The position numbers were made by a program, and so were the translations under genes. Of a stretch of 64,000 nt of DNA, positions 1,455-41,270 are shown one piece after another. The notes below the pieces were generated by a model. That model saw nothing but the letters and a program-made list of their open reading frames with translations. It did no database searches and was not told where the DNA came from. This stretch comes from a virus: positions 96,545-160,544 of IMG/VR virus record IMGVR_UViG_3300048599_000816. One strand, 5' to 3'. Position 1 is the stretch's first letter. Each line of letters opens with the position of its first letter.

Positions 1455-1642
1455 AAAGTTCCTTTTACTATAAATTTCATTTTTGTTGTTTTAACTTCAA
1501 TTTTATTTTCCAAAATCCAATCACTATCACATTGCCACCAACCATTCGAATTACAAACAAGCCAACCTTCAACTAATTGTTTGCAAACTTCTCCTATTGA
1601 TCCATCAGGTAGTTTGCAATGCGTCTTAAAAACTTCAATCAT
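1451..1642 (-). CDS. hypothetical small Cys/Trp-rich protein
   Basis: ORF track; translationally coupled to both neighbours. Confidence 0.3.
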   Translation of the reverse strand: MIEVFKTHCKLPDGSIGEVCKQLVEGWLVCNSNGWWQCDSDWILENKIEVKTTKMKFIVKGTL

Positions 1643-3345
1643 TTTAAAATTTCCAAAATCATTTCTTTGTATTTATCTTTTGTAGCTCTTTGGTAACTAA
1701 ACACATAACTTGGATGCCAAATATTCTGTAAAGGTATTTTTATATTATTATCTCTAAAAAGGATAGTTAAAAATTCAAAAACTTGTTTTCCCATGCTTAC
1801 GACAAGTTCGGGTTTCAAAACATCGATCTCATCAACTATATTCACAAAACAAGCTTGTGCCCAATGCAATTTTATTTCGTTAGTTTGTGATGAGCAATTA
1901 TGCATAACAAGATTATCTGCTATATAACTTTCATCTTCTTCAACACTTAAATTGTATCTAAACCCTCTGCTTTTTTCCATTCTTTCAATACTTAAAATTT
2001 TCGTAGGTTTGAAAACATATTGATGTGTATGATTCTTTAATATTCTTATAATTTCTTTTACGCATCTATCAGCATCTTTTAAAATCTCTTTTTCATCAAA
2101 AATCAAAACAGTATATCCTTTAGATTCTAAGTATTTTGTCCTTTTTGAAGAAAGTTCTACTTTTTTTGTTTTATGCCAGTACCAACCATTACATTCAATA
2201 ATTATTGGTTTTTCATCAAGAACAATATCAGGAAAATATCTACCAATTCTTAAATTGTCTTTAAACTTTATATTTTCTTTTTCTAATCCTTTTTTTATTA
2301 AAACTTCTATTTTTGTGTTTTTTATGGGAATAAATTTTTGTCCAGCAGAATATTTATGCGTACTATAGTACTTAGCAAGCGCTTCTGTCCCTAATGAAGG
2401 AAAGTCTACTCCTCTTTCTTTCATAATTTTTATATTTCTTTTACCTTGTAGTTTTTGTCTTCTCTTTACTTTTTTTGTTTCAGATTCTGAAAGTTTATAT
2501 AACCAGTGATTACCATTTTTATGAATATCACCTGAATGCCATTTTTTTTGTTTTACAAGATCTCTTACTTTATCATTCGCTTTTTTAGTCAATCTAAATC
2601 TTAATGTAGGATCTTTTTTTAAAAGCTTAGGTATTCTATATTTATTTGAACATTTTCTTGAACAATAAACATGTTTTTTTACATCATATTTATTTTTTAT
2701 TATTACTTTATTACAATATGCGCATTTAGAAGCAAGCGATATCAACTCGTCATCTGTAGTTAAATCACTTGCTTTTTTCCAACCAGTTGTTGTCAAAAAG
2801 GGATGTTCGTCTGTCACAATGATTTTATTTTTACTAGTTTTTTCAAATTCATTATTAATAAAAGTAATTTTTATTCTTGTGACACTGTTATCCATTTTTT
2901 CTTTAAAAACTTTTGTAATTTTTCTAAATCTTCCAAGATGTGTCAAAACTCTATCACCAACTTTTAAAAATTTAATTTGGATCCAGCCTTTAGAAGTATA
3001 AATTTTTGTTTTAGGACTTGTAAGACAATGTATGAGATTATCGCAAAATATCTCTTCAAACATTCCTGTTTCTTTTAAAAGCTCATTGAATTTTCTTCCA
3101 GACCCTGGACTACCTTCAACTCCACCAAATGCATATTCATGTCCAGGAAATCTGTTATAAGAAGGATTCATCCCTATAAACAAAAAACGGCATTTTTTTG
3201 TGCCGCCTTTCCAACCATAAAGTTTTCCATAACCTTTTGCAATATCTTTTTTGTTATAATCTAGATCACATAATTCACACCTTGTACAAGCTTGAATATC
3301 TTTGTTGATCTTATCTAATTGTGCTTCTAATTTTTGACAAATCAT
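1639..3345 (-). CDS. Fe-S uracil-DNA-glycosylase-superfamily protein interrupted by an intein
   Basis: Extein: Cys cluster CTRCELC..C, motif FIGMNPSY, C-terminal WHPSYVF (HPS motif). N-extein 106 aa plus C-extein 85 aa gives 191 aa, a normal UDG size. The remaining 377 aa start with Cys after NLIH and end with VMHN followed by CSS. Confidence 0.65.
   Translation of the reverse strand: MICQKLEAQLDKINKDIQACTRCELCDLDYNKKDIAKGYGKLYGWKGGTKKCRFLFIGMNPSYNRFPGHEYAFGGVEGSPGSGRKFNELLKETGMFEEIFCDNLIHCLTSPKTKIYTSKGWIQIKFLKVGDRVLTHLGRFRKITKVFKEKMDNSVTRIKITFINNEFEKTSKNKIIVTDEHPFLTTTGWKKASDLTTDDELISLASKCAYCNKVIIKNKYDVKKHVYCSRKCSNKYRIPKLLKKDPTLRFRLTKKANDKVRDLVKQKKWHSGDIHKNGNHWLYKLSESETKKVKRRQKLQGKRNIKIMKERGVDFPSLGTEALAKYYSTHKYSAGQKFIPIKNTKIEVLIKKGLEKENIKFKDNLRIGRYFPDIVLDEKPIIIECNGWYWHKTKKVELSSKRTKYLESKGYTVLIFDEKEILKDADRCVKEIIRILKNHTHQYVFKPTKILSIERMEKSRGFRYNLSVEEDESYIADNLVMHNCSSQTNEIKLHWAQACFVNIVDEIDVLKPELVVSMGKQVFEFLTILFRDNNIKIPLQNIWHPSYVFSYQRATKDKYKEMILEILK
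1897..3027 (-). mobile_element. intein (Hint domain plus DUF559/Vsr-like PD-(D/E)xK homing endonuclease domain) inside the UDG gene
   Basis: The insert begins CLTSPKT and ends VMHN|C. Its internal segment PIIIECNGWYWHK...YLESKGYTVLIF matches the hhExDGxxH...GW.VLRF motif of the three free-standing endonucleases in the tRNA array. Confidence 0.6.
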
Positions 3346-6102: not shown

Positions 6103-6815
6103 TATTTTTTTCTAGCAATCGACATTTTGTTTTTTGTTGAATCTGATTTCTTTTGTCCAGTAAGTTTTAAACTCATTTTCGCTTTGCAACTTTCTGACAA
6201 GTGTTTTCCTCTTATATTAGGATTTGACTTTCTTGAATCACTTATTTTTTTCTTTGATAGATCTGAATGGTTACCCCAAGAAACACCAGAACGTTTAATA
6301 CTTATTTTACGTTTTGTCTCTTCTGTATGTTTTTTACCAAAAAATGGATTATCTTCTCCTTTTACTTTATTTTTTAAAAAATCTTTATACTTTTGACTTC
6401 TTTTCTTGCCTTTATTTGCTTGACTTACTTTTTGCTTTGTACTAGCTGAATGTTTTTTCCCGAAAAAACCATTTTTTTCACCAGTAATACTTTGTGAAAT
6501 TTTCTTTTTAATTTCTTCATTAAATTCAAAAGAGTCACCACCATCAGTTAGATTATAACCAGATGATACTTTGTTTGAACAATAAAAAGCTATCCAAAAT
6601 TTTTCTTGCGTGTTTAATTGTACTCTTGTTTGACAAACTTCTAACACTTCCCATTTAAAATTTATTTTGCCATACTTTTTTATTGCTCTTTGAAAATAAG
6701 CACTATTATAGTCTGGCGAAGACTCATGGGTTTTTCTTCTTTGCTCTAATGTTTTTATAGTTTGACCAATATAAACTTTATTATTGATTATATTGGTTGC
6801 TTTATAAACGATCAT
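6075..6815 (-). CDS. GIY-YIG homing endonuclease
   Basis: N-terminal MIVYKATNIINNKVYIGQT...RRKTHE (GIY...YIG...R...H/E). Basic DNA-binding repeats follow (GKKHS / GKKHT NUMOD-like). Confidence 0.75.
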   Translation of the reverse strand: MIVYKATNIINNKVYIGQTIKTLEQRRKTHESSPDYNSAYFQRAIKKYGKINFKWEVLEVCQTRVQLNTQEKFWIAFYCSNKVSSGYNLTDGGDSFEFNEEIKKKISQSITGEKNGFFGKKHSASTKQKVSQANKGKKRSQKYKDFLKNKVKGEDNPFFGKKHTEETKRKISIKRSGVSWGNHSDLSKKKISDSRKSNPNIRGKHLSESCKAKMSLKLTGQKKSDSTKNKMSIARKKYWENKRKLI

Positions 6816-7793
6816 TTATTCGCTTTCAAAATAAGATCTGTCACTCTGTTCGAGTTTGTCATAATCATTTTCTGTGAAATCAATCCAGTCAGTTGGTAAC
6901 TTGATTTTCATATCAAGTTGCTGTTCAAGTTTGTCTTTGTCAGTACATGATTGATTGAATTCAGCATACTCATTTGATGTTCCTGGATTTCGATTACATG
7001 GGGCAAATAGACATCCAAACATATTTGACATATTGTAAGCATTGTTGTATGTGCATTTTTTCCCAAAATCACAACCAGGACGACAATAATTTGCCAAGAA
7101 AGGAAATACTTTTTCAAGTTCTTTGTGTACAAGCCACGCAAAAGCAACAGTTGCATCAGCTTCACAAAATTGCATTCTCCTTGCAAGTAAACTCTGAAGA
7201 GCAGCAAAATTAGCTGAGAAACTAAAAGCATGTGTATTTGAAATAGGGAATATTGAACGAGCACTTTGCCATGAACCTTTGCCTTTATGAATAACTAAAT
7301 CATAAACATCTTTACAGTGAAGTGCAGCACTTTTGAATGCTTCAAACAATTCAGGATCTTCAGCAATTTCATCATGAACAAAAAAACCTGCATCATTATG
7401 GTTATTGTCTCTTGTTCCCTGACTTGAGAAAACAATCCCAAGTCTTGCTCGAGCTATCTGATCAAAAGACCAACGAGGAAGACGTTCGACTGCAAATGTA
7501 AAACAAGGTGCTTCATAAGCTAAAGGCAATGCTTGTCGTTTCAAAACAGCTAAAACAACCATGAATCTTCCTTGGGGTGTTGTATCATTCCATTTGTCGA
7601 TTTTCTTTCCCCAGCAAGATGTTGCCATAGTGTACATAGATTTGTAAGGATTTCGCGAACAATCGATAAGCTTTACGCTGTCTTTCATACCAGTTACACC
7701 AATATGAAAATCAGTTTTTTTCTGAGGTTCTTGGTCAGGGAGAGTTCCCATAACTCTTCGAATTGCATTTACATGTTCATTTAAGTTTTCCAT
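6816..7793 (-). CDS. divergent ThyX-like (flavin-dependent thymidylate synthase family) protein
   Basis: CFTFAVERLPRWSFDQIARARLGIVFSSQGTRD aligns to the ThyX core FTF.IEG.SR..S.QLVRHR..S.SQQSQRY. However, RHR is replaced by RAR and SQRY by GTRD. Confidence 0.4.
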   Translation of the reverse strand: MENLNEHVNAIRRVMGTLPDQEPQKKTDFHIGVTGMKDSVKLIDCSRNPYKSMYTMATSCWGKKIDKWNDTTPQGRFMVVLAVLKRQALPLAYEAPCFTFAVERLPRWSFDQIARARLGIVFSSQGTRDNNHNDAGFFVHDEIAEDPELFEAFKSAALHCKDVYDLVIHKGKGSWQSARSIFPISNTHAFSFSANFAALQSLLARRMQFCEADATVAFAWLVHKELEKVFPFLANYCRPGCDFGKKCTYNNAYNMSNMFGCLFAPCNRNPGTSNEYAEFNQSCTDKDKLEQQLDMKIKLPTDWIDFTENDYDKLEQSDRSYFESE

Positions 7794-7801
7794 TTTTTCT
7801 C

Positions 7802-8167
7802 CTAAGATTTAAAGTTTTTGTACATTGTCGTATTTGTAAGGAAACTTGATTTCCAGTTCCATTCATCAAGAAAATAATGTTCAAAATCAGCTTCTGATAT
7901 TTCTATCTCTTCTCTTGTCTCAAATTCAATCATTTTGATTGCTTTTTCGTACTCTTTGACATAAGAGAAAGGTTTGGGAAGATTTGTAATATCAACTTTA
8001 GTATTAATTGCATTAGGAAGGTCAAGTTTTTCAAGAATCTTTTTTAACTCGACTTTAGCTTTTTCAATCCAACCAATGACAGCTTCGTCATAATCTTTTT
8101 GGTGTTGAGCAAGATTTTTTTTGAGAACATCAAGAACAGTTTCTTTTTTTACTTTAATATGTTCCAT
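7802..8167 (-). CDS. hypothetical protein
   Basis: ORF track, trimmed to the internal Met (MEHIKVKK) so it abuts rather than overlaps the next ORF. Confidence 0.3.
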   Translation of the reverse strand: MEHIKVKKETVLDVLKKNLAQHQKDYDEAVIGWIEKAKVELKKILEKLDLPNAINTKVDITNLPKPFSYVKEYEKAIKMIEFETREEIEISEADFEHYFLDEWNWKSSFLTNTTMYKNFKS

Positions 8168-8168
8168 T

Positions 8169-8405
8169 TTATTCCTTCTTTTCTGCAGGTGGTTCGTCAC
8201 AAACTTCAGCATCAACATCAGCTAAAAGTTTGACAAAAGTATTCTTTCCAATAAAAACTTTCGAGCCTTTTTTAATTTTGATTTTAGATGTATTATCAGT
8301 TTCTTTTTCTGTGATCAAATCGTCAAAAAAACTTTCAACACCTTTGCCAACATTCGTAAGACAATCTGTCAAGTTTTCAAATGCTTTTTCAAAATCTGTT
8401 TTCAT
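8169..8405 (-). CDS. hypothetical acidic protein
   Basis: ORF track. Confidence 0.3.
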   Translation of the reverse strand: MKTDFEKAFENLTDCLTNVGKGVESFFDDLITEKETDNTSKIKIKKGSKVFIGKNTFVKLLADVDAEVCDEPPAEKKE

Positions 8406-8430
8406 ATTACTCCTTTGTTAGCTTGTAATC

Positions 8431-8793
8431 TTGAAATTATATATTCCAAAAACAAGAAAAAATAATAAAAAACTTAAGATGTCATGTTTTTCTCACTTAA
8501 AGGAGCGTAAAATGAATGCTGAAAAGATTCACGAATTAAGTGGTCTAATAGCAAGACTTGAAAGATTTCAATGTTCTGTTTATAACAAAGATAGCAATCC
8601 TACAATGTATGTTGAATCAGAAAAAATTCAAAAATCAGAGTTTGAAAATGTAGAACAATTTGCTGAAGACTTAAGAGTAGCTATTGAAACTGTTGTAAAT
8701 AAACACGTCAATTTATTGAAGAAGGAAATTGAAAAAGAAGTATTGGGTATTGTAGAAAAACAAAAAACAAATAGAAAAACAAAAAAGACTTAG
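8431..8793 (+). CDS. hypothetical protein (lysine-rich C-terminus)
   Basis: Plus-strand ORF followed directly by the hairpin terminator. Confidence 0.35.
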   Translation: MKLYIPKTRKNNKKLKMSCFSHLKERKMNAEKIHELSGLIARLERFQCSVYNKDSNPTMYVESEKIQKSEFENVEQFAEDLRVAIETVVNKHVNLLKKEIEKEVLGIVEKQKTNRKTKKT

Positions 8794-8812
8794 TTTTCAC
8801 TAAGTCTTTTTT
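8786..8812. terminator. bidirectional rho-independent terminator
   Basis: agacttag-ttttca-ctaagtct stem-loop flanked by A-run and T-run, between convergent genes. Confidence 0.6.
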
Positions 8813-8834
8813 AAAATGATACCTTAAGGATACC

Positions 8835-9620
8835 TTAAGAAAAAAATGAGTTTGTTGTGCCACCAATTGTGGTCTGACTTGTCCGGATAACTGATTTACT
8901 AACTAAATCAACAGTCCTACGTATTTCACTTTCTGTTGCAGCTGCAGTTAGAACGTTTGGAAATCCAACCTTTTTAGCGACAGCTTTCAGAATTGTATCA
9001 GCACTTGGATCGTTAGGATCTGTATAACCGACGTACACAGGATAGAACATTTCTTTTTTAAGAAGCGACTCTGTTGTAATTTTAACTTCGCTTGAAGATG
9101 ATTTCTGTGAATCATTATCATCACCATCAGAAAAAACTACCACAATAGTTTTTGTTCTTACACCATTTTGATTCAGGTCTGTTGCATAAGCTTTCGCACC
9201 TGTGATAGATTCCATAAGAGCATCATATACTGCAGTAGAACCGCCTGTCGCTCTGTAATCATTACCAATTGGAGCAATTTCATCAGATTTTTTAAACCCA
9301 TGCAAAATTTTCGTCCTTGTCGAAAAAACAACTGTACTTACGAGAATTGAGCCACCTTGCTTTGAGTTTTTGAAAGACTGAATCATTTTGTCATACGAAT
9401 CACGTACAACTTGTTCATGTTTCTTCATTGAAATCGAAGCATCAAGTAAAATTTTAACGACTGTTACGTCATCTGTTTCAATATCATCCAATGAAGTACC
9501 AAGGCAACCAGCAAGATTTGAACCATCTAAACTGTTGACCATAAGTGCACCTACTGTAGGATCTACAGTAGGCAAACTAAATAGATTTTTTACGTCATCA
9601 ATATCAGCCATGTTAATCAA
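8835..9620 (-). CDS. von Willebrand factor A (vWA) domain protein, TerY-like
   Basis: MIDAS-like LLDASISM (DxSxS) and TKTIVVVFSDGDDND. Confidence 0.55.
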   Translation of the reverse strand: MINMADIDDVKNLFSLPTVDPTVGALMVNSLDGSNLAGCLGTSLDDIETDDVTVVKILLDASISMKKHEQVVRDSYDKMIQSFKNSKQGGSILVSTVVFSTRTKILHGFKKSDEIAPIGNDYRATGGSTAVYDALMESITGAKAYATDLNQNGVRTKTIVVVFSDGDDNDSQKSSSSEVKITTESLLKKEMFYPVYVGYTDPNDPSADTILKAVAKKVGFPNVLTAAATESEIRRTVDLVSKSVIRTSQTTIGGTTNSFFS

Positions 9621-9634
9621 TTCCTTTCTAATTT

Positions 9635-10579
9635 TTATTTAAAAACATCAGTGCTGTTGACAATATTAAGACCTGCTTTTTCGAATTTTGCAAATTCAGC
9701 ATTTGCAATTGCTTCAAAATCGATTGTTGGGTGCTTTACTGAACTCATGCAATCTTTCAGAATCCATATTTTCTTGAGTACTTCAGGTTGATCTTTAAAA
9801 AACAAATACAATTGAAGGAGAGACTCAAGAACACAATGTGATTTTGCTTGTCCTGCAACGAGCAAACGATCATAACGACCCATAAGGTTAAGAAATGCTG
9901 TATTGATACCACCTCTTGGATTTTTAGGTACCAAAACTTCAGGACGGAAAATACCGAACATTTCAGTTTCAGGAACGTCACCTTTAAGTTGAAAACTGAT
10001 TTGTGACCGTCGAACAGCTGCATGGTAATAACAAATTTCATAGAGAGAAGGTACCAATGCATGTCCAGGTGTACCAAGCATAGTATGTTCTGGCCAAATC
10101 ATCAATGGCTTATTTGCTTGTTTTTCAAGAGTTTTCACGTAATCTAAAGACCAAATCGGATCAATAACTGGCTTAAATTTACCCGCTTCAATATCAGCAC
10201 TCGTAATAACAGTATAGGGTGCCGGATTTTTTCCATTTTCATCAACCCACCAATATCCATAGAAGATTTGAAATACCATGTGAGTATCGAGCGTAGGATA
10301 AATTGTTGTAATTTTGCTCATGTTATTGATGATAAGATCAATAATTCTAAACATATCAATTTCAGAATTATCAACATAAAGTTGACCAATAGGTGGGGGC
10401 AAACAGAAATCAATCTGACAGTCAATTAGAAGCAAGGCAACCCTTTGGCCAGGTTTATCCATTGCCGATGGCATTATAGGGTTACGAGCGGCCTCAGCTT
10501 TCACAGCTTGGATGTTTGGGACAAATAGTTGTCCGATTTTTTTCTCATCGAAAAAACTTGGTCTTGGTGCCATACACAA
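9635..10579 (-). CDS. isochorismatase-family hydrolase, possibly a nicotinamidase (PncA-like)
   Basis: ALLLIDCQIDFC (catalytic Asp motif D.Q.DF) and LLVAGQAKSHCV (catalytic Cys motif). Confidence 0.5.
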   Translation of the reverse strand: MCMAPRPSFFDEKKIGQLFVPNIQAVKAEAARNPIMPSAMDKPGQRVALLLIDCQIDFCLPPPIGQLYVDNSEIDMFRIIDLIINNMSKITTIYPTLDTHMVFQIFYGYWWVDENGKNPAPYTVITSADIEAGKFKPVIDPIWSLDYVKTLEKQANKPLMIWPEHTMLGTPGHALVPSLYEICYYHAAVRRSQISFQLKGDVPETEMFGIFRPEVLVPKNPRGGINTAFLNLMGRYDRLLVAGQAKSHCVLESLLQLYLFFKDQPEVLKKIWILKDCMSSVKHPTIDFEAIANAEFAKFEKAGLNIVNSTDVFK

Positions 10580-10591
10580 CTCCTTCTAAAG

Positions 10592-12463
10592 TTATTTTTT
10601 TATAAGTCTTAAAAAACTGACCTTGTGTTCTGATACAACTAAAATACCATCTTTATATAAATACGTAGTGTCACTAGAATCAACATATTTTTCAGTTTGT
10701 TTTTTCAAAGATAATTGCTTGTGTTTTTCAATCACAATACCCACATCAGTCGGGTGTATAATAGAAGAACCTGCTAATGTTTTCCCAGTGATGTTTCTCA
10801 TAGTTTCTGAATTTATAGATGTTGTTGTCATTGTATCAATAACTTTTCCAGTATCATCAATTAAGAAATAATGTGAATAAGTTCTTCCATCAGGATGTAA
10901 AGATTTTACAAGAAACAAAACTGTAGAAATTGATATTTCAGCATCAACTTCAATTATTTTTCCTTCAATTTTGGGAAGAGAAAATTCATATCTGCCTTTT
11001 GGAGAAAAAACAAAATAATGATATTGATTAAAGACTCTAAAAAAACAAAAACCCAGTCCTGTCCTTCCAACTTTAAACCAAGTTTGATTTTGTAAAGTTT
11101 GCGTAATTACTGTATCAGCAATGTTTTTTCCAAAAATTTCAGAAGATAAAAGTGTTTGTTCTGCGAGTCTATAAAGTTTTGTTGAACTACAACTAAAGAT
11201 TAAATAACCATCATATTTCAAAGTAGTTGTCTTTAGAACAGGCTGCAAACTAAGTGTTACTTCAAATATTTGAAGTTCATCATTGACACCTAATACAAGA
11301 TAATTTTTAAAAAAATCATATTGTACATCTTTTGTATGACCTGACCATAACTTAAAATCTTTTTTATCTTTATCTGAAATTATATGCAAGTTAGTTTGCA
11401 TCCCATTAAATTCGATAACTATTATTCTATTATCGTCAAGAACTTTTGAAAAAAGAATAGTTCCTTCAGTTTGAAAAAGAATATCACAAATACAAAAATC
11501 ATCGTGAATATCTTGTGTTACGACAATTTGTTGAATATTAACTGTAGGTTGCACAATTGGTACAAAACAAACAGAGCATTTTCCTCTACCTTTATAGTAA
11601 TAGTTGTTACAAACATTACATTTTACAAAAGAATTTTTATGACTATCTAAAAGAGACATTGGCAATTCTATTCTTTGATCAAGTTTAAAAATTTTGTCAA
11701 AATAATCAAGCAATTCTATACTTAAAGTTTCAGGTTTAATTGCTATTCTCGGATAAACTACACTTGAATCAAATACAGAAATTTTATTTTTTGCTCTATC
11801 TACTATTGTTTGTAAGGTATTATGAACACCACCAAAAGGATGTGTTAAAAGCAAACATTTAAAAAGCATAACAGCATAACTATACCAATCAGTCTCTTTT
11901 GAAAAGTATTGTTTTAAAGAAAGATCAACGCCATAAAGTCTTGGATCAAGAAACTGTTCTGTTCCTACTGCACAAGGATATTTTCCAAACTGAAATGAAT
12001 CAACATCAATAAAAACTGACAAGAATGAATTATTGTAAAGTACATTCATATCATTGTAATCACCAACAACAATGTTATTTGTATGCAAAACTTGCAATGT
12101 CTCTAACATATGTTTAAAGAATGTTATGATTTCATTGGGAGTTATTTGTTCTTGATTTCTATTTTTTTTGTTTGAAAGATAGACTGCTTCTTTACATTTT
12201 TTTGCAACATGCATAGAGAAACCAACAATGTTTGATTTTTCATCATACACAAGATCTAAGGGACATGCAATATTATCGGGTAATGTCAATTTCAAATCTA
12301 TGAAATCTTTAAGTTTTTTTGCTCGTTGAGGAGAGGGATTATGATAAATTTTTAAAGCGTGTTTTTTATAAAGAACGACTGTCGCTTCACCACCTGTACC
12401 AAGTGAGTCTTTATCGTCAACTTGGATTTTTTCTTTATTAAATATTAATGTCTTTGTTGTCAT
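10592..12463 (-). CDS. protein-kinase-like (Ser/Thr kinase fold) protein with Zn-ribbon and C-terminal domain
   Basis: Gly loop LGTGGEATVV, ALKI lysine, catalytic-loop-like HTNNIVVGDYNDMN (D...N), DFG-like FIDVDSFQFG. Cys-rich CNVCNNYYYKGRGKCSVC follows. Confidence 0.5.
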   Translation of the reverse strand: MTTKTLIFNKEKIQVDDKDSLGTGGEATVVLYKKHALKIYHNPSPQRAKKLKDFIDLKLTLPDNIACPLDLVYDEKSNIVGFSMHVAKKCKEAVYLSNKKNRNQEQITPNEIITFFKHMLETLQVLHTNNIVVGDYNDMNVLYNNSFLSVFIDVDSFQFGKYPCAVGTEQFLDPRLYGVDLSLKQYFSKETDWYSYAVMLFKCLLLTHPFGGVHNTLQTIVDRAKNKISVFDSSVVYPRIAIKPETLSIELLDYFDKIFKLDQRIELPMSLLDSHKNSFVKCNVCNNYYYKGRGKCSVCFVPIVQPTVNIQQIVVTQDIHDDFCICDILFQTEGTILFSKVLDDNRIIVIEFNGMQTNLHIISDKDKKDFKLWSGHTKDVQYDFFKNYLVLGVNDELQIFEVTLSLQPVLKTTTLKYDGYLIFSCSSTKLYRLAEQTLLSSEIFGKNIADTVITQTLQNQTWFKVGRTGLGFCFFRVFNQYHYFVFSPKGRYEFSLPKIEGKIIEVDAEISISTVLFLVKSLHPDGRTYSHYFLIDDTGKVIDTMTTTSINSETMRNITGKTLAGSSIIHPTDVGIVIEKHKQLSLKKQTEKYVDSSDTTYLYKDGILVVSEHKVSFLRLIKK

Positions 12464-12825
12464 TTTATTTTGCTTTTACTATAACCCTTCATATTCGTTA
12501 GATTAGGCAATACAATATCTTTCCATGTCCATAAATGACGTGTATTAGAACCATTACATAAATCATCGTTTTTGGGAAAGATTTCAACTGCTGAAACATC
12601 TACACCAAGCAAATCATCTTTAATCTCTTGTAAGATCATGTAATCTTTTATTGGGTTACAATCTATTCTCTGAATTAAAAGATGAGTATAGGTAATACCA
12701 TTATCTGATTGTACATCTTCACAAAGAATATCATAGATACCATCTTCAGTTTGCCAGCATTTTTTTATGTTCTTTAAATGTGGTAACTTTTCTAATGTAG
12801 ATGGACAATACCTTAAATATTTCAT
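12460..12825 (-). CDS. hypothetical protein
   Basis: ORF track; lies between the kinase and the phosphatase. Confidence 0.3.
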   Translation of the reverse strand: MKYLRYCPSTLEKLPHLKNIKKCWQTEDGIYDILCEDVQSDNGITYTHLLIQRIDCNPIKDYMILQEIKDDLLGVDVSAVEIFPKNDDLCNGSNTRHLWTWKDIVLPNLTNMKGYSKSKIK

Positions 12826-12828
12826 AAT

Positions 12829-13569
12829 CTATTCTTTTGTATGTTTCTCAATTACTATACATGTTGCATCATCTCCAAATAAACCATCATTTTGCCATAG
12901 ATTAAATTTTCTTTGAAGTTCACGTTTTTTTGTGCCATATAAGTCTGAATCAAGATTTTTATCGATTAAAGATTGTATGCCATCTGTACCAATAATGACG
13001 CTATCGATTTTTTCACAATCAAAAACATTGATAGTAAAGAAATTTAATTCTGTGGGTTTTTGTTGAAGAAATTCTTTGGGCACTGATTTATATGCTATAT
13101 ACTCAGGTTTACCTTCTTGATGAATTTCATGTATTTCATTATTAATGATAACAATGCCATCACCACAATTTGCTACAACAACTTTATCTTTCGTCACCAC
13201 ACAAAATAAACAAGTACTTAATAAAAACTCGTTTATAAACGAAATACGTTCAGGTTGTGATGCAACTTCAAAAAACAAAATCCCCTCGAGGCGCTTTATA
13301 AACAAATCAATTTCGTATTCAAGTTGTTTTTTTAAAATTTCAGCATCAAAAAAAGCATCTGGTTTAAACGCATTTCTTAAAAGATTTACCATGAAAGTAC
13401 TCAGTAATGCGGAACCAACTTCAGAATATTTACTTTGACCACATCCATCGCATACAACACCTATTAATAAATCGGGTGAAACATGAGTATGAAAAAAGTC
13501 TTGTTTGTTCTTTTTAGAAAACTCATGTTCACGGCCTATTATAGATGCTTTATTTAAAACCCAGCTCAT
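12829..13569 (-). CDS. PP2C-family Ser/Thr protein phosphatase
   Basis: GVVCDGCGQS, VVVANCGDGIVII, IIGTDGIQ (PP2C metal-binding Asp/Gly motifs). Confidence 0.55.
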   Translation of the reverse strand: MSWVLNKASIIGREHEFSKKNKQDFFHTHVSPDLLIGVVCDGCGQSKYSEVGSALLSTFMVNLLRNAFKPDAFFDAEILKKQLEYEIDLFIKRLEGILFFEVASQPERISFINEFLLSTCLFCVVTKDKVVVANCGDGIVIINNEIHEIHQEGKPEYIAYKSVPKEFLQQKPTELNFFTINVFDCEKIDSVIIGTDGIQSLIDKNLDSDLYGTKKRELQRKFNLWQNDGLFGDDATCIVIEKHTKE

Positions 13570-13982
13570 TATAGACCCTTTGAGTTTTTGTGAGTAAGAA
13601 GAATTTGCATACCTTTTGTTTTTGTCACGTCACCAGATAACGGATCAAGAAGTGACTTTAATGCTGTCTTATCTTGAACTGTTCGCCATCTCAAGTTAAT
13701 GTGTTTGTTTGCAGCTTGAATTGCAATAAAATCACCTGCACGACGACCATAACATCTTCTTATGAAGCCTACATCATCTTGTTTTGTTGCAAATTCAGAG
13801 AGGATATAACCCTGTTTTGTAGGGTGAACACCAATACCTTGCAGACGCAATTTTCGAATAATTGTATAGATTGAACTTACTGTCAAACCACAAAGTTCTG
13901 CAAGTTGATTTGCTGTTAGATATGAATTTTCAATTAATGCAGTATGCACTTTTTTGAACATATCATTAGTCTTGGGTTTCAT
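13569..13982 (-). CDS. winged-helix HTH DNA-binding protein
   Basis: LTANQLAELCGLTVSSIYTIIRKLR helix-turn-helix. Confidence 0.35.
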   Translation of the reverse strand: MKPKTNDMFKKVHTALIENSYLTANQLAELCGLTVSSIYTIIRKLRLQGIGVHPTKQGYILSEFATKQDDVGFIRRCYGRRAGDFIAIQAANKHINLRWRTVQDKTALKSLLDPLSGDVTKTKGMQILLTHKNSKGL

Positions 13983-13990
13983 AGGTCTCC

Positions 13991-14428
13991 TTATAATTGA
14001 AATGATGTGCGAAGAATTTGTACAGCTTCATTTGCTTCTATAAGTGCTTCAGCACTTTTTCTATAAAAATGAGATTTTTTTAACATGTCAAGAGCATCAG
14101 AACGATCAGGTTCATCCATTGTTTTTAATTTTTTCACAAATTCATTAGTAACAGACATTCCTATCGGGAGATGTTTAGAATTATGAGAATTCTGTTCGAC
14201 TGTAGCAGGGAGATTTGAGTTAGAAGATTTTTTAAATACCAACTTATATTTATGGTTCGCGTTAATAATTTTACAACCATTATTCTTTTTATTAACATCA
14301 TGAACACCACTATATAATGCCTGTTTTGATATCTCAAGTGTTTTCATTATTTCTTCAGACGAAAAACCATCAGGTGCATCAGTCAACAATTGAACTATAC
14401 GATCTTTTGTAGTAACTTTTTTACTCAT
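13991..14428 (-). CDS. hypothetical protein (possible regulator)
   Basis: ORF track. Confidence 0.3.
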   Translation of the reverse strand: MSKKVTTKDRIVQLLTDAPDGFSSEEIMKTLEISKQALYSGVHDVNKKNNGCKIINANHKYKLVFKKSSNSNLPATVEQNSHNSKHLPIGMSVTNEFVKKLKTMDEPDRSDALDMLKKSHFYRKSAEALIEANEAVQILRTSFQL

Positions 14429-14624
14429 GTTTTTTATCTCCTTTTATTGTTGATCTGTATAATAATCCTTGATTTATTAACCATCTTACCTGATGTTGTA
14501 AGTTTCTGCCGTCTTCTTTAGCAGACGACATTACCTTTTCATGCATCTCTTCTGTGACTCTAAGATTTGATATCCCTAAAGTTTTCACTAAATTTTGTTC
14601 TGTTTTATCTGTTGTTGTTTTCAT
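14421..14624 (-). CDS. small ribbon-helix-helix/Arc-like DNA-binding protein (putative)
   Basis: 67 aa; it follows the palindromic TTAAC-rich intergenic region on the minus strand. Confidence 0.3.
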   Translation of the reverse strand: MKTTTDKTEQNLVKTLGISNLRVTEEMHEKVMSSAKEDGRNLQHQVRWLINQGLLYRSTIKGDKKHE

Positions 14625-14650
14625 ATGATCTATAATCTATATCATATGTT

Positions 14651-14695
14651 TTAACCAGGGTTAACAAATTTACACAATTTTTAACAAAATTTAAC
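14651..14695. promoter_or_regulatory. operator-like palindrome TTAACC-AG-GGTTAA with additional TTAAC repeats
   Basis: ttaaccagggttaa, then ttaac again at about 14681 and 14691, in the 175-nt gap upstream (minus strand) of the RHH-like gene. Confidence 0.35.
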
Positions 14696-14800
14696 ATTTT
14701 TTAGATAAGACAGTTTTGTTTATTTTTGTGGTATTTTAAAAGTAGGAGAACAAAGTGCTCATTATAGCATCAATGACGCACTTTGTAAAAATTGTTACGG

Positions 14801-15178
14801 TTAATAGCCAGTCTCTTGTCGTTTGAAATTGACATCTTGTTTTCTTTTTACTTCTTCTAACAATTCTTTTGCTGTCATATTATGAGTTAAAGCTGTATTT
14901 AAGACAAAAATAAACATATCAGCAATCTCATCTCTTACTTCTTTTTCGCCTTTACTGTCGTCTTGAGTCTTATGTGACTTATAATTTCCTACAGCACTAA
15001 TAAACTCGCCAACTTCTTGGTATAAGAGTAATGCAAGTTCTTTGCTAAATCTTGATTTTTCTTTTTTGTCAAATTCAGCAAGCGGTTTGTTAGGAAATTG
15101 ATCGCTTTTTGAAATAAGCAAGTTTTCAAAAACTTCTTGTCTTTCATAAATTTCAGCAAAAATAACATTAGTGTCCAT
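14801..15178 (-). CDS. MazG-like nucleoside-triphosphate pyrophosphohydrolase
   Basis: EVGEFISAV and EIADMFIFVLNTA motifs. Start set at the internal ATG (MDTNVIF) preceded by an AGGAGAAA-like Shine-Dalgarno sequence; the longer ORF-track N-terminus is probably not coding. Confidence 0.5.
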   Translation of the reverse strand: MDTNVIFAEIYERQEVFENLLISKSDQFPNKPLAEFDKKEKSRFSKELALLLYQEVGEFISAVGNYKSHKTQDDSKGEKEVRDEIADMFIFVLNTALTHNMTAKELLEEVKRKQDVNFKRQETGY

Positions 15179-15285
15179 ATTTTCTCCTTTTACTTGTTTA
15201 TATATTCTTATTTTAAAAGTTACAAAAAACTTTTTTAAATATAATAATATATTCAAGTAAGAAACAAAACATCTAAGGAGAAAAA

Positions 15286-15780
15286 ATGCAAGCTCTAAAC
15301 GTAGGATGTCATGACATCCATATTTCTGGAATGTTGAATATTGATATTGATCCTGCAATGAAACCAGATCTTTTGTTAGATTGTACTAAGTTAGCTGAAC
15401 ACTTTGACCAAGAATCAATTGATTTTGTTTATATGGGACACTTTCTTGAACATTTAACAATTCAAGAAGGAAAGAAAGTAGTTGCTGACATTTTTCGTAT
15501 TTTAAAACAATATGGTAGTGTTGTCATTACTATTCCCGACTACACAAAATGTGATGGTCTAACTATTACGGAGGTTGAAAGCGTAGTAATAGCAGGAGGT
15601 CAACATAAAACTCTTATGAATATTGAACGAGTCAAAGAATATATGCATGAAGCTGGATTTTGTACTATTGCTGAGATTCAACCCAAAGAAACACCTCATT
15701 GTCCTTTCCCTGAAGTAACATGGCAAACAAGTGCAATTGGTATCAAACACCCTGTGGTAAGATTTCATGGAATCAACTAA
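15286..15780 (+). CDS. class I SAM-dependent methyltransferase (putative)
   Basis: LNVGCHD...FVYMGHFLEHL Methyltransf_11-like pattern; good RBS (aaggagaaaaaATG). Confidence 0.4.
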   Translation: MQALNVGCHDIHISGMLNIDIDPAMKPDLLLDCTKLAEHFDQESIDFVYMGHFLEHLTIQEGKKVVADIFRILKQYGSVVITIPDYTKCDGLTITEVESVVIAGGQHKTLMNIERVKEYMHEAGFCTIAEIQPKETPHCPFPEVTWQTSAIGIKHPVVRFHGIN

Positions 15781-16459
15781 CACAACAGGATATTTTCACG
15801 TTGCTTTAATGCAAAATCTTGGTGGGTTTTCTGTTGCATCAGAAATGCATGGTCGTTTTTTACAATCAGGTTTGTATGATGCAACAGATGAAATCAATAT
15901 AGTGATTCTTGGTGACAAAACGCAAGCTAACTTCTTTATTGATTATATTGTAAACACTCATAAAAAATATAAACTCAGATTTTTTGACCCAAATATTTCA
16001 TTATATGAATGGCCAACTTTATCTTGCATTTATGAAGATTGCAAAACATCAAACAATGATGTCTGGTATGTACATACAAAAGGTGCAAGTAATTGTAGAC
16101 CTGACGTACCTGCAAGAATCCAAAGAAATATAAGATCGTGGCGAGGTGTAATGTCTTACAATATTATTGGAAAACACAAACTTTGCAAAGAAATATTGAG
16201 TGAAGGAATTGATGCTACTGGTGCTTTTTATCAAAAAGAAGTTAATTGTTTTTCTGGTAATTTTTGGTGGTCAAAAGCAAGTCACATACGTTCATTAAAA
16301 GAACCTATGGGAACTAGAAATGAAGCTGAACTTTGGGTGTGTACTAACCAGCAAGCAAAATATGAAAGTTTATATGATTTTGCAAGACTTGACATTTATG
16401 ATTTTGAAAATTTTTATGGTGAAAAAGGTTCTTTATGTTACAGTCCAGGTAGTATTTAA
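15767..16459 (+). CDS. hypothetical protein
   Basis: ORF track; overlaps the upstream plus-strand gene by 14 nt. Confidence 0.3.
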   Translation: MESTNTTGYFHVALMQNLGGFSVASEMHGRFLQSGLYDATDEINIVILGDKTQANFFIDYIVNTHKKYKLRFFDPNISLYEWPTLSCIYEDCKTSNNDVWYVHTKGASNCRPDVPARIQRNIRSWRGVMSYNIIGKHKLCKEILSEGIDATGAFYQKEVNCFSGNFWWSKASHIRSLKEPMGTRNEAELWVCTNQQAKYESLYDFARLDIYDFENFYGEKGSLCYSPGSI

Positions 16460-17449
16460 AGAATTTTCAAAAACAACTTTTTTACAACCCTTTGTTATAA
16501 CACCAATTTTGTAAGCATCATAAGATTTAGACAAATAATCTATAACTTTATTTGCTTTTTCAGGACTTACAACAACAGTTACACCAACACCCATATTAAA
16601 TGTACGAAGCATATCTTGATCAGAGACTTTTCCGATGTCTTTTATTCTTTTAAAAACATCTAAAACTCTAACTTTATTAAGATCAATAACAGCATTTACA
16701 TTTTCTGGTAAGATTCTATCTAAATTCTCACCTATGCCTCCACCAGTAATGTGTGCCATACCATTCACTTCACTGAACACTCCACATAAAGCTTTGTAAT
16801 ATGGCGTGTGAGGCTTCATAATATTTTGCATAAAATTTTGATCAGACATTAATTCTGGATGTTCTATAAGTATAGCCCTTATAAGAGTATATCCATTTGT
16901 ATGTGGACCATTAGAACTTATAGCTATGACAATATCGTTTTCTTTAATTGCACTTCCATCAACGATTTTCGATCTATCTACAATACCAACAATTGAAGAT
17001 GACAAAATATAAGTTCCTATTGGTATGACACCAGGTTGCTCAGAAGTTTCTCCTCCAACAAGAGTACAACCATTTAATTGACAAGCGTCAGCCATTGCCT
17101 TCACCATTCGTTTTACTTTATCGCTTTCCAATTTCCCGCAAACTATGCAATCTTGAACAACAAATGGATGAGCACCTACCATGATACAATCATTCACTAA
17201 ATGATTGATCATATCATAACAAATAGACTCATACATGTCAAATCCAAATGCGAGAAGTTGCTTTGATCCTGGCTCTTCTGTTTTTGTAACTATAACAGGA
17301 TCAGAAAAATTAAGCTTCGAAAAATCTGATATAGATGCAAATGCACCTACTTTGTTTAAAACAGAGGGGTTATCGAACAAAATTTCTTTAAAACCAGATT
17401 TAAGTGTATTTGCTTTATCAATATCAACACCAGATGTTTTATAATCCAT
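16433..17449 (-). CDS. purM: phosphoribosylformylglycinamidine cyclo-ligase (AIR synthetase, PurM-like)
   Basis: N-terminal YKTSGVDIDKAN, GGETSEQPGV, HITGGGIGENL. Confidence 0.65.
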   Translation of the reverse strand: MDYKTSGVDIDKANTLKSGFKEILFDNPSVLNKVGAFASISDFSKLNFSDPVIVTKTEEPGSKQLLAFGFDMYESICYDMINHLVNDCIMVGAHPFVVQDCIVCGKLESDKVKRMVKAMADACQLNGCTLVGGETSEQPGVIPIGTYILSSSIVGIVDRSKIVDGSAIKENDIVIAISSNGPHTNGYTLIRAILIEHPELMSDQNFMQNIMKPHTPYYKALCGVFSEVNGMAHITGGGIGENLDRILPENVNAVIDLNKVRVLDVFKRIKDIGKVSDQDMLRTFNMGVGVTVVVSPEKANKVIDYLSKSYDAYKIGVITKGCKKVVFENSLNTTWTVT

Positions 17450-32929: not shown

Positions 32930-34222
32930 TCAAATCAATTTCTTATAACATTTTGTTTTATAAAAATTATACATATAAGTTTTCATCCATTTATTAACTT
33001 TTTGAGTCTTTATTTTTAACAGTTTTGAAACTTCATTCACCCAACCAATTTTTGAAAAATCTATTGAACTATTTTCAACTATCTTTATTTTCTCAAGTTG
33101 TTTAAGCAATCTTAACAAAAGTCTTATTTTTGATTTTCGTTGTAATTCAAGTCTTTTAGAGTTATCTCTATTTATTCTTAAAGTTTTATTTTTAAAAATA
33201 TGATTCTCAAGAACCTTTGGAACATATCTATATTCACTTAAATTATTTAACAGAGTTAAAAACGAATTAATTCTTTCTTGATTTATTTCATTATATGCAA
33301 TTCTTACTACTTTCCACCCTTTAGATAATAAATGTCTATCTTTTTTTAAGTCATGTTCAAATCTAACATTACCATGCGAAAAATGTGCTGGTCCATCAAG
33401 TTCAACAGCAAGTTTTATATTAACAAAAGCAAAATCAATAAAATATGGAAATTCAGCATATTCACTTACAATATCATACTTCTCATTCAAATTAAATTTT
33501 AAAACGATTTTATCTATGAACCACTGTTCTAAAGAACTTGGTATTTGTTTATTTCTTTTTTCCCAAGCTGTTTTACCTGTTCGTTTTTTTAAATATTCAA
33601 ATCTTGTTTCTCTTATTTTATCTTTTGTAGCTGTAGAATGTTTAAAAACTTCTGGGTTTTGTTTATGAACTAGTTTAATCGCTTCTGATAAAGAACGATG
33701 TTTGTCTTTTAAAGCAACTGTTATGAGAGATTTATGATAACCAGCTCTAATAAGTTCATAAGTTGACATACCAGAAGAATACATTTTTATAATTTCATTA
33801 ATTTGTTGTTCAGAAAAACATTTATGTTTTTTGAAATTTCCAGAATTGAAAAATCTTTTACATTGAGTACATTGTTGTTTTTTAAAACAACTTGATATTA
33901 CTTTTTGTCGAGTACCTATAAGATAAGATTTTTTAAGACACTCACTAGCGTTATGTTTTCTCTTGATGTCTTTAATATAGAATTTTACTAATTTTTCGGA
34001 ATATCCTCTTCTGACTATCTCAGTAAATAGCATTCCAGAAATATACAAATTTCTAATTTTATTGATTTCAGTTTTTGATAGAACGCAATTTCTTTTGTGT
34101 TGTATAAATCCAGTCAAATTCTTTAAAATCCTGCCACAATTATCACATTGTAATGGATTAAAAACTGGAGCGAGAAGACTTGAACTTCTAACTCTCGGAC
34201 TCAAATTCCGATGTTCTGCCAT
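32930..34222 (-). CDS. free-standing homing-endonuclease-like protein (C2H2-type Zn fingers, HTH, DUF559/Vsr-like nuclease)
   Basis: CDNCGRILKNLTGFIQHKRNC, CTQCKRFFNSGNFKKHKC, C-terminal YFIDFAFVNIKLAVELDGPAHF...GWKVVRIAY. The ORF-track N-terminus (MAEHRNLSPRV..) is a translation of tRNA-Gln, so the true start is uncertain. Confidence 0.55.
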   Translation of the reverse strand: MAEHRNLSPRVRSSSLLAPVFNPLQCDNCGRILKNLTGFIQHKRNCVLSKTEINKIRNLYISGMLFTEIVRRGYSEKLVKFYIKDIKRKHNASECLKKSYLIGTRQKVISSCFKKQQCTQCKRFFNSGNFKKHKCFSEQQINEIIKMYSSGMSTYELIRAGYHKSLITVALKDKHRSLSEAIKLVHKQNPEVFKHSTATKDKIRETRFEYLKKRTGKTAWEKRNKQIPSSLEQWFIDKIVLKFNLNEKYDIVSEYAEFPYFIDFAFVNIKLAVELDGPAHFSHGNVRFEHDLKKDRHLLSKGWKVVRIAYNEINQERINSFLTLLNNLSEYRYVPKVLENHIFKNKTLRINRDNSKRLELQRKSKIRLLLRLLKQLEKIKIVENSSIDFSKIGWVNEVSKLLKIKTQKVNKWMKTYMYNFYKTKCYKKLI

Positions 34223-34236
34223 TGAACTACGCTCCC
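34165..34236 (-). tRNA. tRNA-Gln(TTG)
   Basis: Hand-folded: T-arm AGAAG-UUCAAGU-CUUCU, D-arm GUUC-AAUGGCA-GAAC, anticodon stem UCGGA/UCCGA with loop AUUUGAG. There is a 1:72 mismatch. Confidence 0.6.
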
Positions 34237-34240
34237 AAAT

Positions 34241-34319
34241 TGGTCGAGATGAGAGGATTTGAACCTCCAGTTATACCTGACCCCAGATCAGGTGCCATAC
34301 CAGATTAGGCGACATCTCG
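34241..34319 (-). tRNA. tRNA-Pro(TGG), CCA encoded
   Basis: Acceptor CGAGAUG/CAUCUCG, T-arm GGAGG-UUCAAAU-CCUCU, anticodon stem CCUGA/UCAGG with loop UCUGGGG (C33 is unusual); 3' CCA present in the DNA. Confidence 0.5.
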
Positions 34320-34340
34320 ATGTAAAAGATCTAAAACAAA

Positions 34341-34370
34341 AACGGCTCCTCTTTTTGGAGAGGAGCCGTT
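34341..34370 (-). terminator. rho-independent terminator (12-bp GC-rich hairpin)
   Basis: aacggctcctct-ttttgg-agaggagccgtt; a T-run follows on the minus strand. Confidence 0.5.
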
Positions 34371-34526
34371 TGAAAATTTATCGATATTCAGTTATTCCAA
34401 CAGCGTCACTCTCCAAGTATTTTTCTTGGTTGGGGTTGTTGTGGCTGCTGTGGAAACCTTAAAAACATTATCAATTCCTTTGTTAGTTCTAATATAATAA
34501 AACTTTTTGCAAGTGTAAAATGTTTT

Positions 34527-35057: not shown

Positions 35058-35170
35058 AAAGTCTCCTTCATTGAATGTTTAAAATATTATTTCAAGTTGC
35101 AACTTGTTAATACATTATATATCATGCTATTGGTCGCAATCAAAAAAATAATCGCGACCAAAAAATAAAA

Positions 35171-35194
35171 AAGGCTCTCTTAAAAGAGAGCCTT
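35171..35194 (-). terminator. rho-independent terminator
   Basis: aaggctctct-taaa-agagagcctt with a minus-strand T-run; downstream of 35222..35512. Confidence 0.55.
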
Positions 35195-35221
35195 TGATGT
35201 AAAAACACAAGTATTAATTTT

Positions 35222-35512: not shown

Positions 35513-35540
35513 ACAAAACCTTTCATACAATTTAAACACA

Positions 35541-36323: not shown

Positions 36324-36379
36324 GAGAATATCGATTGTTTCTTATTAAGAGCCAAAAACTATGACACTTAAGAAAACAA

Positions 36380-37688: not shown

Positions 37689-37694
37689 CAAAAC

Positions 37695-41262: not shown

Positions 41263-41270
41263 ATTTTTCC

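Follow-up and report, generated by a model that had tools for sequence, protein, structure and literature searches.

On the minus strand of a 64,000-nucleotide (nt) stretch of virus DNA (IMG/VR record IMGVR_UViG_3300048599_000816, positions 96,545 to 160,544; hereafter the window, in whose numbering all positions are given), genes for a PP2C-family phosphatase, a Ser/Thr protein kinase, a nicotinamidase-like hydrolase and a stand-alone vWA protein form a block that recurs in bacteria and in other viruses. The block is a fixed four-gene cassette composed of two pairs, PP2C-kinase and nicotinamidase-vWA. We interpret this cassette as a nicotinamidase module under phospho-regulation, supplying Preiss-Handler NAD salvage and borrowed from bacteria by a huge phage, a reading to which we would assign a probability of roughly 0.55. 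It draws on gene presence, on how well catalytic residues are conserved, on the folds of both the nicotinamidase and a beta-propeller in the kinase, on the linkage of the four genes and on the NAD genes found around them, all of which were computed here.

Linkage was surveyed in two sets of loci. The kinase family served as the seed for the bacterial set, which comprises 80 loci from assemblies limited to one genome per species, and an independent, alignment-based nicotinamidase seed was used for the viral set, in which 80 of 97 viral loci from IMG/VR were kept. All four homologues lie on one strand in 66 of the 80 bacterial loci, with about half of the other 14 ending at contig edges. The viral set contains all four genes in 57 of 80 loci, and at least the kinase, nicotinamidase and vWA genes in 66 of 80. 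Because one-strand co-occurrence reaches these frequencies in both sets, the linkage is far beyond chance. The bacterial carriers include Chloroflexota, Patescibacteria (candidate phyla radiation, CPR), Myxococcota, Gammaproteobacteria, Planctomycetota, Spirochaetales and others, and the median spacing between cassette matches is 33-180 bases. Two gene orders occur in bacteria, PP2C-kinase-nicotinamidase-vWA (n=58) and nicotinamidase-vWA-PP2C-kinase (n=8, all Anaerolineae), and both pairs are unbroken in either order; PP2C adjoins the kinase in every one of the 66 complete bacterial loci. Three loci that lack the nicotinamidase (L020, L073 and L075) also lack the vWA gene, and the nicotinamidase occurs without its partners in L010 and in eight viral loci.

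A syntenic relative is a 424,144-bp viral genome from IMG/VR (L004), with 56-72% protein identity over the block. A small 46-kb phage (L099) also carries the cassette, followed by two small open reading frames (ORFs) and, ~1.6 kb downstream, an SPP1-type portal gene; the gene directly upstream of the cassette in this phage, at 6403-7854, encodes a DUF2828/DUF7788 protein, which brings in a second vWA domain. No match was obtained when positions 8000-15000 of the window were compared with INPHARED phages in a distant-mode DNA search, and the kinase used as a single query against IMG/VR yielded no confirmed locus, whereas the alignment-based nicotinamidase-seeded scan succeeded. Looking up the window's kinase by exact sequence retrieved no record. 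A 630-aa gene upstream of a lone Anaerolineae kinase was considered as a paralogue and discarded, as it encodes a pentapeptide/TPR protein. Likewise, the huge-phage match LR756511 (L001) shows similarity to the kinase domain only, together with a distant vWA gene 7 kb away, and does not represent the cassette.

An earlier sequence-only reading of the window had described a vWA, kinase and PP2C triad, co-oriented and tightly linked, with an isochorismatase/nicotinamidase-like hydrolase as an unusual addition. All four of its ORFs were recovered at their coordinates and on the minus strand, and the shared orientation, tight linkage and co-location in related genomes hold throughout the two sets described above. 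The hydrolase, by contrast, proves to be a core member of the cassette and not an insertion, because the four genes co-occur across bacterial phyla and phages.

Among the four proteins, this hydrolase shows the highest conservation, with ~45-50% identity to bacterial copies compared with 26-34% for the others. Its family exceeds 2,876 homologues of about 307 aa, many of which JGI and NCBI label nicotinamidase or cysteine hydrolase. As a single sequence, the 314-aa ORF (9635-10579) gave a sub-threshold match to Pfam Isochorismatase (E=0.023) and, among PDB sequences, chance matches to tubulin-tyrosine ligase only, so that a profile search was needed. A family profile compared with PDB placed yeast Pnc1 first (1.1e-7) and Mycobacterium tuberculosis PncA next (4.9e-6). 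An AlphaFold2 (AF2) model of the protein has a mean confidence (pLDDT) of 94.2, and its 12 best Foldseek matches in PDB are all nicotinamidases, headed by the PncA of Acinetobacter baumannii (2e-13). The residues of the catalytic triad (D53, K199 and C249; numbering for this enzyme and for the vWA protein counts from the TTG start) are invariant in a 40-member alignment and reach a conservation of at least 97% over 76 copies from cassettes. No variation is seen in the same 40-member alignment at the metal ligands (D98, H100 and H165), and W162-P163-x-H165 aligns with the WPVH motif of Pnc1.

The D-K-C triad, the D-H-H metal site, the W-P-x-H motif and the fold are thus all held in common with PncA and Pnc1, which also supply the best PDB matches. 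Differences from these enzymes include the additional length of ~100 residues, an identity of 15-19% to the solved structures, a single-sequence score below the Pfam cut-off and the presence of a dedicated vWA neighbour. Of the earlier double label, the nicotinamidase half is upheld by both profile and fold; an isochorismatase in the strict sense can be rejected, as the best profile and fold matches are nicotinamidases and the metal-site motifs fit nicotinamidases. The protein therefore looks like a long-form nicotinamidase of the PncA/Pnc1 type, predicted from its residues and modelled fold to be active, and its conserved motifs suggest that it would convert nicotinamide to nicotinate.

Identification of the second enzyme as a protein kinase rests on a Pfam Pkinase match spanning residues 20-262 (42.8 bits, cut-off 31.7) and on conserved motifs. 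A 37-member alignment retains the glycine-rich loop (G22xGGE26), the ATP-binding lysine (K38), the catalytic loop (G134-D135-x-N137-D138-x-N140) and the metal-binding motif (D153xD155) expected of the predicted kinase. Beyond the catalytic domain, four cysteines of a zinc ribbon (C282, C285, C296 and C299) are invariant in this alignment. The C-terminal region (residues 270-623) was modelled by AF2 with a pLDDT of 91.6 and includes a seven-bladed beta-propeller that had gone unnoticed before, for which Foldseek returned the clathrin terminal domain and propeller B of DDB1. The family is large, with 2,240 cluster representatives at E<=1e-30.

The phosphatase and the vWA protein are likewise equipped with intact functional sites. 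Six PP2C aspartates involved in metal binding (D24, D41, D137, D196, D233 and D234) are at least 99% conserved in 76 cassette homologues, and the phosphatase is predicted to be active. The vWA protein (8835-9620 when counted from TTG) scores 24.1 bits with Pfam VWA, just over the cut-off of 23.8. Its metal ion-dependent adhesion site (MIDAS), formed by D60-x-S62-x-S64, T129 and D165, is complete, with conservation of 88-100% in 72 homologues. Downstream of this domain is a Ser-rich C-terminal tail, V-S241-x-S243-[AV]-I-R246-x-S248-Q249-x(8-10)-F259-F260, that ends in Phe-Phe and is near-invariant across phyla and phages, being present even in the distant copy of the 46-kb phage. Many relatives of this protein are named YegL by JGI, the name of the COG of TerY-type vWA proteins. 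The nearest plasmid relatives (~26% identity) occur on the Selenomonas plasmid pSRC2 (L172) and on a Peptoclostridium plasmid (L173), where a macro-domain or O-acetyl-ADP-ribose deacetylase gene lies ~1.6 kb upstream and directly upstream, respectively; these two plasmids hint that this vWA clade generally partners enzymes of NAD or ADP-ribose metabolism. The context of a further match, on a Variovorax plasmid, was uninformative.

The NAD-salvage reading is suggested by the genomic context of the cassette. In 13 of the 80 bacterial loci it is adjoined by NrtR, the ADP-ribose-sensing regulator of NAD genes, and recurrent bacterial neighbours include NadE, NAD kinase, Nudix and NadD-like genes as well. 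When the neighbour ORFs of bacterial loci (n=150) were put through a Pfam census, NAPRTase (PncB) came first, and the other leading families were NAD synthase, NrtR, Nudix, cytidylyltransferase-like (NadD-type) proteins and generic methyltransferases. NAPRTase also ranks first among 143 viral neighbour ORFs, with NAD synthase next among the NAD-related families; NAD-dependent DNA ligase, portal and sheath proteins are found in this census as well. Ter families are absent from the 25 most frequent neighbour families of the bacterial and viral censuses. The setting of the cassette is one of NAD salvage genes, and not of tellurite resistance or restriction loci.

Individual phages display the same association. 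A 330-kb phage (L093) has PncB, NadE, PP2C, kinase, nicotinamidase and vWA genes in one contiguous series, and PncB and NadD-like genes flank the cassette in this phage and in three more (L096, L165 and L167). The NadE gene of the window lies ~4 kb upstream of the block, a relative position at which L004 and L092 also have a NadE gene, and in L006 and L093 a NadE gene is the direct neighbour of the cassette. Next to NadE in the window, at 16433-17449 on the minus strand, is a PurM-like protein related to AIR synthase. Elsewhere in the window (41271-41714, minus strand) is a stand-alone 147-aa Nudix hydrolase with 32% identity to the ADP-ribose-sensing Nudix domain of the NrtR that flanks the cassette in a bacterial locus, L008; it may be a further phage gene of NAD or ADP-ribose metabolism. 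In L008 (13669-14874), and also in L036 and L090, a conserved 401-aa protein is encoded between NAD kinase and NadE. It gives only a weak match, to the N-terminal domain of quinolinate phosphoribosyltransferase, and could represent a diverged phosphoribosyltransferase for nicotinate or nicotinamide.

These features can be assembled into a working mechanism. The nicotinamidase would open the Preiss-Handler route by converting nicotinamide to nicotinate, from which PncB, NadD and NadE lead to NAD+, and the small vWA protein would serve as its dedicated partner, probably in a physical complex. The near-invariant vWA tail (S-x-S-x-x-R-x-S-Q ... F-F) would be the phospho-acceptor, and hence the presumed target of both kinase and PP2C. 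In this scheme, the kinase would sense a signal or dock on a partner through its zinc ribbon and beta-propeller and then phosphorylate the tail, PP2C would reset the switch, and the MIDAS site would read the phosphorylation state, turning nicotinamide deamidation up or down. Such propellers have a known peptide-binding role, and it is because of this role, the pairing of the genes and the conservation of the residues that we propose the partnership, the tail as target and the docking or sensing function. In a phage that also encodes NadE, the NAD+ pool might be kept or rebuilt during infection, including in infections where nicotinamide has been set free by the NADase defences of the host. The phage's gain and the sense in which deamidation would be regulated are conjectural, as are the substrate, the complex and the tail as target. 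Host takeover, superinfection exclusion and defence evasion, the functions first suggested for the block, would be possible only in the form of NAD maintenance.

Several observations weigh against the proposal. The profile of the kinase family retrieved zinc ribbons only from PDB, with no solved kinase at E<=0.001. The nicotinamidase is longer than the solved enzymes, as noted above, and aligns with them at a TM-score of 0.55 (query-normalised). NAD genes are found within the examined flanks of a minority of loci only, and neither a Pfam scan of 40 ORFs nor tblastn detected PncB or NadD within the 64 kb of the window, so the pathway is incomplete there. Removal of nicotinamide would relieve the product inhibition of sirtuin-type NADases, and the gain for a phage is not obvious. 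Finally, TerY-P triads elsewhere accompany conflict systems (PMC11090510).

The last point calls for a comparison with the TerY-P triad itself, which consists of a TerY-like vWA protein, PP2C and a kinase with a C-terminal zinc ribbon (Anantharaman, Iyer and Aravind, 2012, as summarized in PMC11090510). The block fits the pattern given there, in agreement with the sequence-only reading, and profile searches bore out each of the three domain assignments (vWA, PP2C_2 and Pkinase). A MIDAS-bearing, stand-alone TerY-like vWA protein, PP2C and a Ser/Thr kinase-zinc ribbon protein in one operon are common to both. From the triad as summarized there, the cassette differs in the extra seven-bladed propeller of its kinase, in having the nicotinamidase as a fixed fourth member and in having NAD salvage genes as neighbors instead of ter, McrBC/CoCoNuT or DNA-processing genes. 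The defence version of TerY-P (Gao et al., 2020) shares the three domain types; it has an OB fold after the kinase according to PMC11090510, whereas in the cassette the kinase precedes a zinc ribbon plus a beta-propeller and has no OB fold. In actinobacterial GAP1-N2 GTPase systems, a kinase-zinc ribbon-beta-rich domain protein is accompanied by an adjacent PP2C and a stand-alone vWA protein (Kaur et al., 2020, PMC7159879). These sets resemble the cassette, by published description only, in kinase architecture and in PP2C and vWA neighbors, and they differ in their GTPase-centered conflict partner, with neither a nicotinamidase nor an NAD context mentioned in PMC7159879.

By analogy with these systems, the cassette could be a conflict module, that is, a TerY-P-type device for defence, superinfection exclusion or counter-defence in which a nicotinamidase-like effector acts on nicotinamide, NAD or ADP-ribose signaling and not on NAD supply. 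The cassette is common in phages and patchily distributed over bacterial phyla, two of the bacterial neighbor ORFs are ADP-ribosylglycohydrolases, and the weak plasmid relatives of the vWA protein share neighborhoods with macro-domain or deacetylase genes, as described above, in one case directly adjacent. TerY-P triads go with restriction-type systems and a TerY-P-like module protects from phage (PMC11090510), and predicted anti-ADP-ribosylation systems include NrtR-type regulators and vWA 'chaperones' (PMC9503650). On the other hand, effectors tend to evolve fast whereas this enzyme shows strong conservation, linked genes for a nuclease, a toxin or another effector of the usual kinds are missing, and the cassette is present in reduced CPR genomes amid NrtR, NadE, NAD kinase and PncB genes. 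NCBIfam gave far sub-threshold matches only for these proteins and no family assignment. PADLOC, which includes TerY-P models, returned no TerY-P match for the vWA protein, PP2C or kinase even at E<=10; at that threshold its defence models matched neither the vWA protein nor PP2C, and the kinase matched generic kinase models only. A role in conflict of this kind is therefore unlikely in our estimation.

A second alternative retains the switch and changes its chemistry. Because the enzyme is ~100 residues longer than solved nicotinamidases, being extended at the N-terminus and carrying an insertion that separates the D-x-H motif from W-P-x-H, its substrate could be altered. Candidates would be nicotinamide mononucleotide, nicotinamide riboside, NAD (giving deamido-NAD, to be re-amidated by NadE) or another pyridine amide, in which case the switch would govern a different node of NAD metabolism; the frequency of NadE, a deamido-NAD enzyme, among the neighbors is in keeping with this idea. 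Set against it are the leading place of PncB, which uses free nicotinate, in the neighbor families of both bacteria and viruses, and the catalytic triad, metal site and W-P-x-H motif, which are as in true nicotinamidases and are accompanied by top fold matches to these enzymes. We consider a different substrate improbable.

It is also conceivable, with a still lower likelihood, that the vWA protein acts as a chaperone that loads metal into the nicotinamidase or activates it, comparable to vWA proteins of the CoxE, NorD and CbbO types, and that the kinase and phosphatase act elsewhere. Nicotinamidases require a bound metal, for which the three ligands are conserved here; the MIDAS of the vWA protein is intact, the protein has a weak VWA_CoxE match (E=5.2e-4) and the nicotinamidase and vWA genes are never found apart as a pair. 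A MoxR-type AAA+ partner is normal for vWA activases of this sort, however, and the cassette lacks one; in most loci the kinase-PP2C pair is inherited together with the nicotinamidase-vWA pair, and a phospho-site is the better explanation for the invariant Ser-rich tail. As for the four genes being unrelated neighbors, a notion that the density of huge phage genomes and the placement of most window genes on one strand might invite, there is next to no likelihood of it, since their adjacency and shared orientation are conserved in the bacterial and viral loci at identities down to 22-30%.

Under the preferred reading, the cassette would add to the ways in which phages sustain NAD. Jumbo phages carry Preiss-Handler genes (PMC11662467), and phage NAD+ rebuilding counters Sir2-type, NAD-depleting defences (PMC13464706). 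The enzymes of the pathways NARP1-3 are Adps/Namat, NadV/NMNAT and PnuC/NadR (PMC11662467, PMC13464706). What the window shares with these phages is the presence of NAD synthesis genes in a huge phage, the likely gain being that NAD+ is kept available; the route proposed here is distinct in beginning with nicotinamide deamidation and in being coupled to a kinase-phosphatase-vWA switch. No match to the NARP1, NARP2 or NARP3 families (Adps+Namat, NadV+NMNAT, PnuC+NadR) was found among the cassette proteins or the scanned ORFs of the window. The account of NAD genes in jumbo phages (PMC11662467) mentions no protein kinase, phosphatase, vWA protein or nicotinamidase, and a survey of NAD genes in viruses (PMC9503650) mentions neither PncA, isochorismatase, NadE nor PP2C. 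A limited literature search found no published account of a long-form nicotinamidase fixed to a vWA-PP2C-kinase(zinc ribbon-propeller) set. Thus TerY-P-like triads, nicotinamidases and jumbo-phage NAD genes are each known separately, and within that limited search it is their fixed coupling that is new.

A more elaborate version of the proposal, which we regard as rather unlikely, would make the cassette a fourth way for phages to rebuild NAD+, one gated by a signal. The propeller kinase would sense a consequence of NADase defence, such as a surge of nicotinamide or ADP-ribose or a host protein, and phosphorylate the vWA tail; the nicotinamidase would thereby be switched on, and nicotinamide would pass through PncB, NadD and the phage NadE to NAD+. 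The bacterial cassettes would then represent an unrecognized post-translational control of NAD salvage operating beneath NrtR. Control of NAD salvage in bacteria is thought to be mainly transcriptional, exerted by NrtR, NiaR and NadR. If the nicotinamidase is indeed governed by a kinase-phosphatase-vWA switch, a post-translational layer would be added, and it would be present in Chloroflexota, in Myxococcota and in CPR bacteria, whose metabolism is minimal. To our knowledge, the biochemical output of TerY-P triads has so far been hypothetical, and the triad described here would gain a concrete, assayable partner enzyme. For phages, the cassette points to a Preiss-Handler-based and possibly regulated form of NAD+ upkeep, a topic on which work on phage defence currently focuses (NARP1-3). 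Experiments are feasible, as the cassette is present in a cultured bacterium, Ktedonospora formicarum SOSP1-1 (L062), and in small phages too.

Within the window, the cassette is part of a longer array of genes (Table 1). Tightly packed genes are bracketed by a promoter-like and a terminator-like site, and for this reason they look co-transcribed; by consensus-based inference the block resembles a single eight-gene transcription unit running from position 14789 to the hairpin at 8813-8780. The promoter-like site has 11 of 12 consensus matches and is the top site within 8000-15500, a region in which the number of such sites is not above that of shuffled controls. Adjacent genes are separated by 23 bases (vWA and nicotinamidase), 18 bases (nicotinamidase and kinase) or 3 bases (DUF7694 and PP2C), or overlap by 4 bases (kinase and DUF7694) or by 1 base (the PP2C start and the stop of the upstream winged helix-turn-helix gene). 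Good ribosome-binding sites precede an ATG at 9611 for the vWA protein, giving 258 aa identical to the database protein P0241 (in this ATG numbering its residues are lower by 3), and an ATG at 10573 for the nicotinamidase, giving 312 aa, as long as database protein P0121, to which it is 99% identical; these two codons are the likely starts.

Between PP2C and the kinase, the unit includes one more ORF, the fifth of the block and overlooked previously, that encodes a small DUF7694 protein. This gene was undetected in every related locus fetched, where PP2C and kinase genes abut or overlap, and is the sole window-specific addition to the block. Three small helix-turn-helix or Arc-like genes (13569-14624) directly precede PP2C. 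The slot of the first, Arc-like ORF is held in the 424-kb relative by a 75-aa gene, a correspondence of position only, and the winged helix-turn-helix gene nearest to PP2C occupies the slot that NrtR holds in many bacterial loci.

Table 1. Coordinates, strand and supporting evidence for features of the cassette region and the nearby NadE gene (HTH, helix-turn-helix)
Feature	Position	Strand	Evidence or remark
Terminator-like hairpin	8780..8813	-	15-bp stem, then a T run; lies 22 bases past the vWA stop codon
Stand-alone vWA protein, 258 aa from ATG	8835..9611	-	Pfam VWA E=4.9e-5
Nicotinamidase-like protein, long-form PncA/Pnc1-type, 312 aa from ATG	9635..10573	-	Profile and fold searches
Ser/Thr kinase (predicted), 623 aa	10592..12463	-	Pkinase E=5.5e-11
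Seven-bladed beta-propeller	10595-11497	-	AF2 model and Foldseek
4-Cys zinc ribbon	11567-11620	-	Invariant cysteines; profile match to solved zinc ribbons
Kinase domain	~11654-12424	-	Pkinase and motifs
DUF7694 small protein, 121 aa	12460..12825	-	DUF7694 E=2.8e-10; phrog_7839
PP2C-family Ser/Thr phosphatase, 246 aa	12829..13569	-	PP2C_2 E=4.5e-21
Winged-HTH protein, 137 aa	13569..13982	-	HTH_24 E=7.4e-6; 63% identity to L004 gene
HTH protein, 145 aa	13991..14428	-	HTH_11 E=1.2e-4; 44% identity to same-position L004 gene
Arc/ribbon-helix-helix-like ORF, 67 aa	14421..14624	-	Weak Arc match, E=0.019; PHROG Arc-like repressor, 0.0035; first gene of the unit
Promoter-like site	14761..14789	-	TTTACA-17-TATAAT with upstream TG; probable start of transcription unit
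NadE, glutamine-dependent NAD synthase, 569 aa	17621..19330	-	NAD_synthase 1.4e-69, CN_hydrolase 5.4e-24; outside the block, syntenic with it

The element that carries the block is very probably a huge phage (the sequence-only reading had spoken of a phage), the window by itself being no proof. The window has ~31% G+C and nearly all of its genes on one strand, and no capsid, portal or terminase gene is present among its scanned ORFs. The kinase and vWA proteins are recorded in databases on a 426,911-bp JGI contig, and in addition to the syntenic viral genome already described there are further relatives of 330-466 kb. Arrays of tRNA genes and a tmRNA gene are typical of huge phages; over 34164-51276 and 59450-59852 (minus strand), the window holds several clusters with 18 tRNA genes in all, together with a tmRNA gene with the tag peptide VNKIAVNFALAFANNVRLGMANTIVA. 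Several genes for DUF559/Vsr-type endonucleases and an intein, described below, also speak for a huge phage.

A few other genes of the window, all on the minus strand, deserve mention. Beside the tRNA array are a Thg1-type tRNA-His guanylyltransferase (43988-44689) and an RNA ligase (40252-41262), which suggests a phage set for tRNA maturation or repair. A uracil-DNA glycosylase-like gene (1639-3345) is split by an intein (Hint/Intein_splicing) with a DUF559/Vsr-like endonuclease domain. Three more ORFs (32930-34222, 47295-48242 and 50255-51316), one of which overlaps predicted tRNA genes, have endonuclease domains of the DUF559/MTES_1575 type and are probably selfish genes resembling homing endonucleases. 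An unusual item of phage cargo is encoded at 56771-58228, a 485-aa SPFH/Band 7 protein with a flotillin-like C-terminal region.

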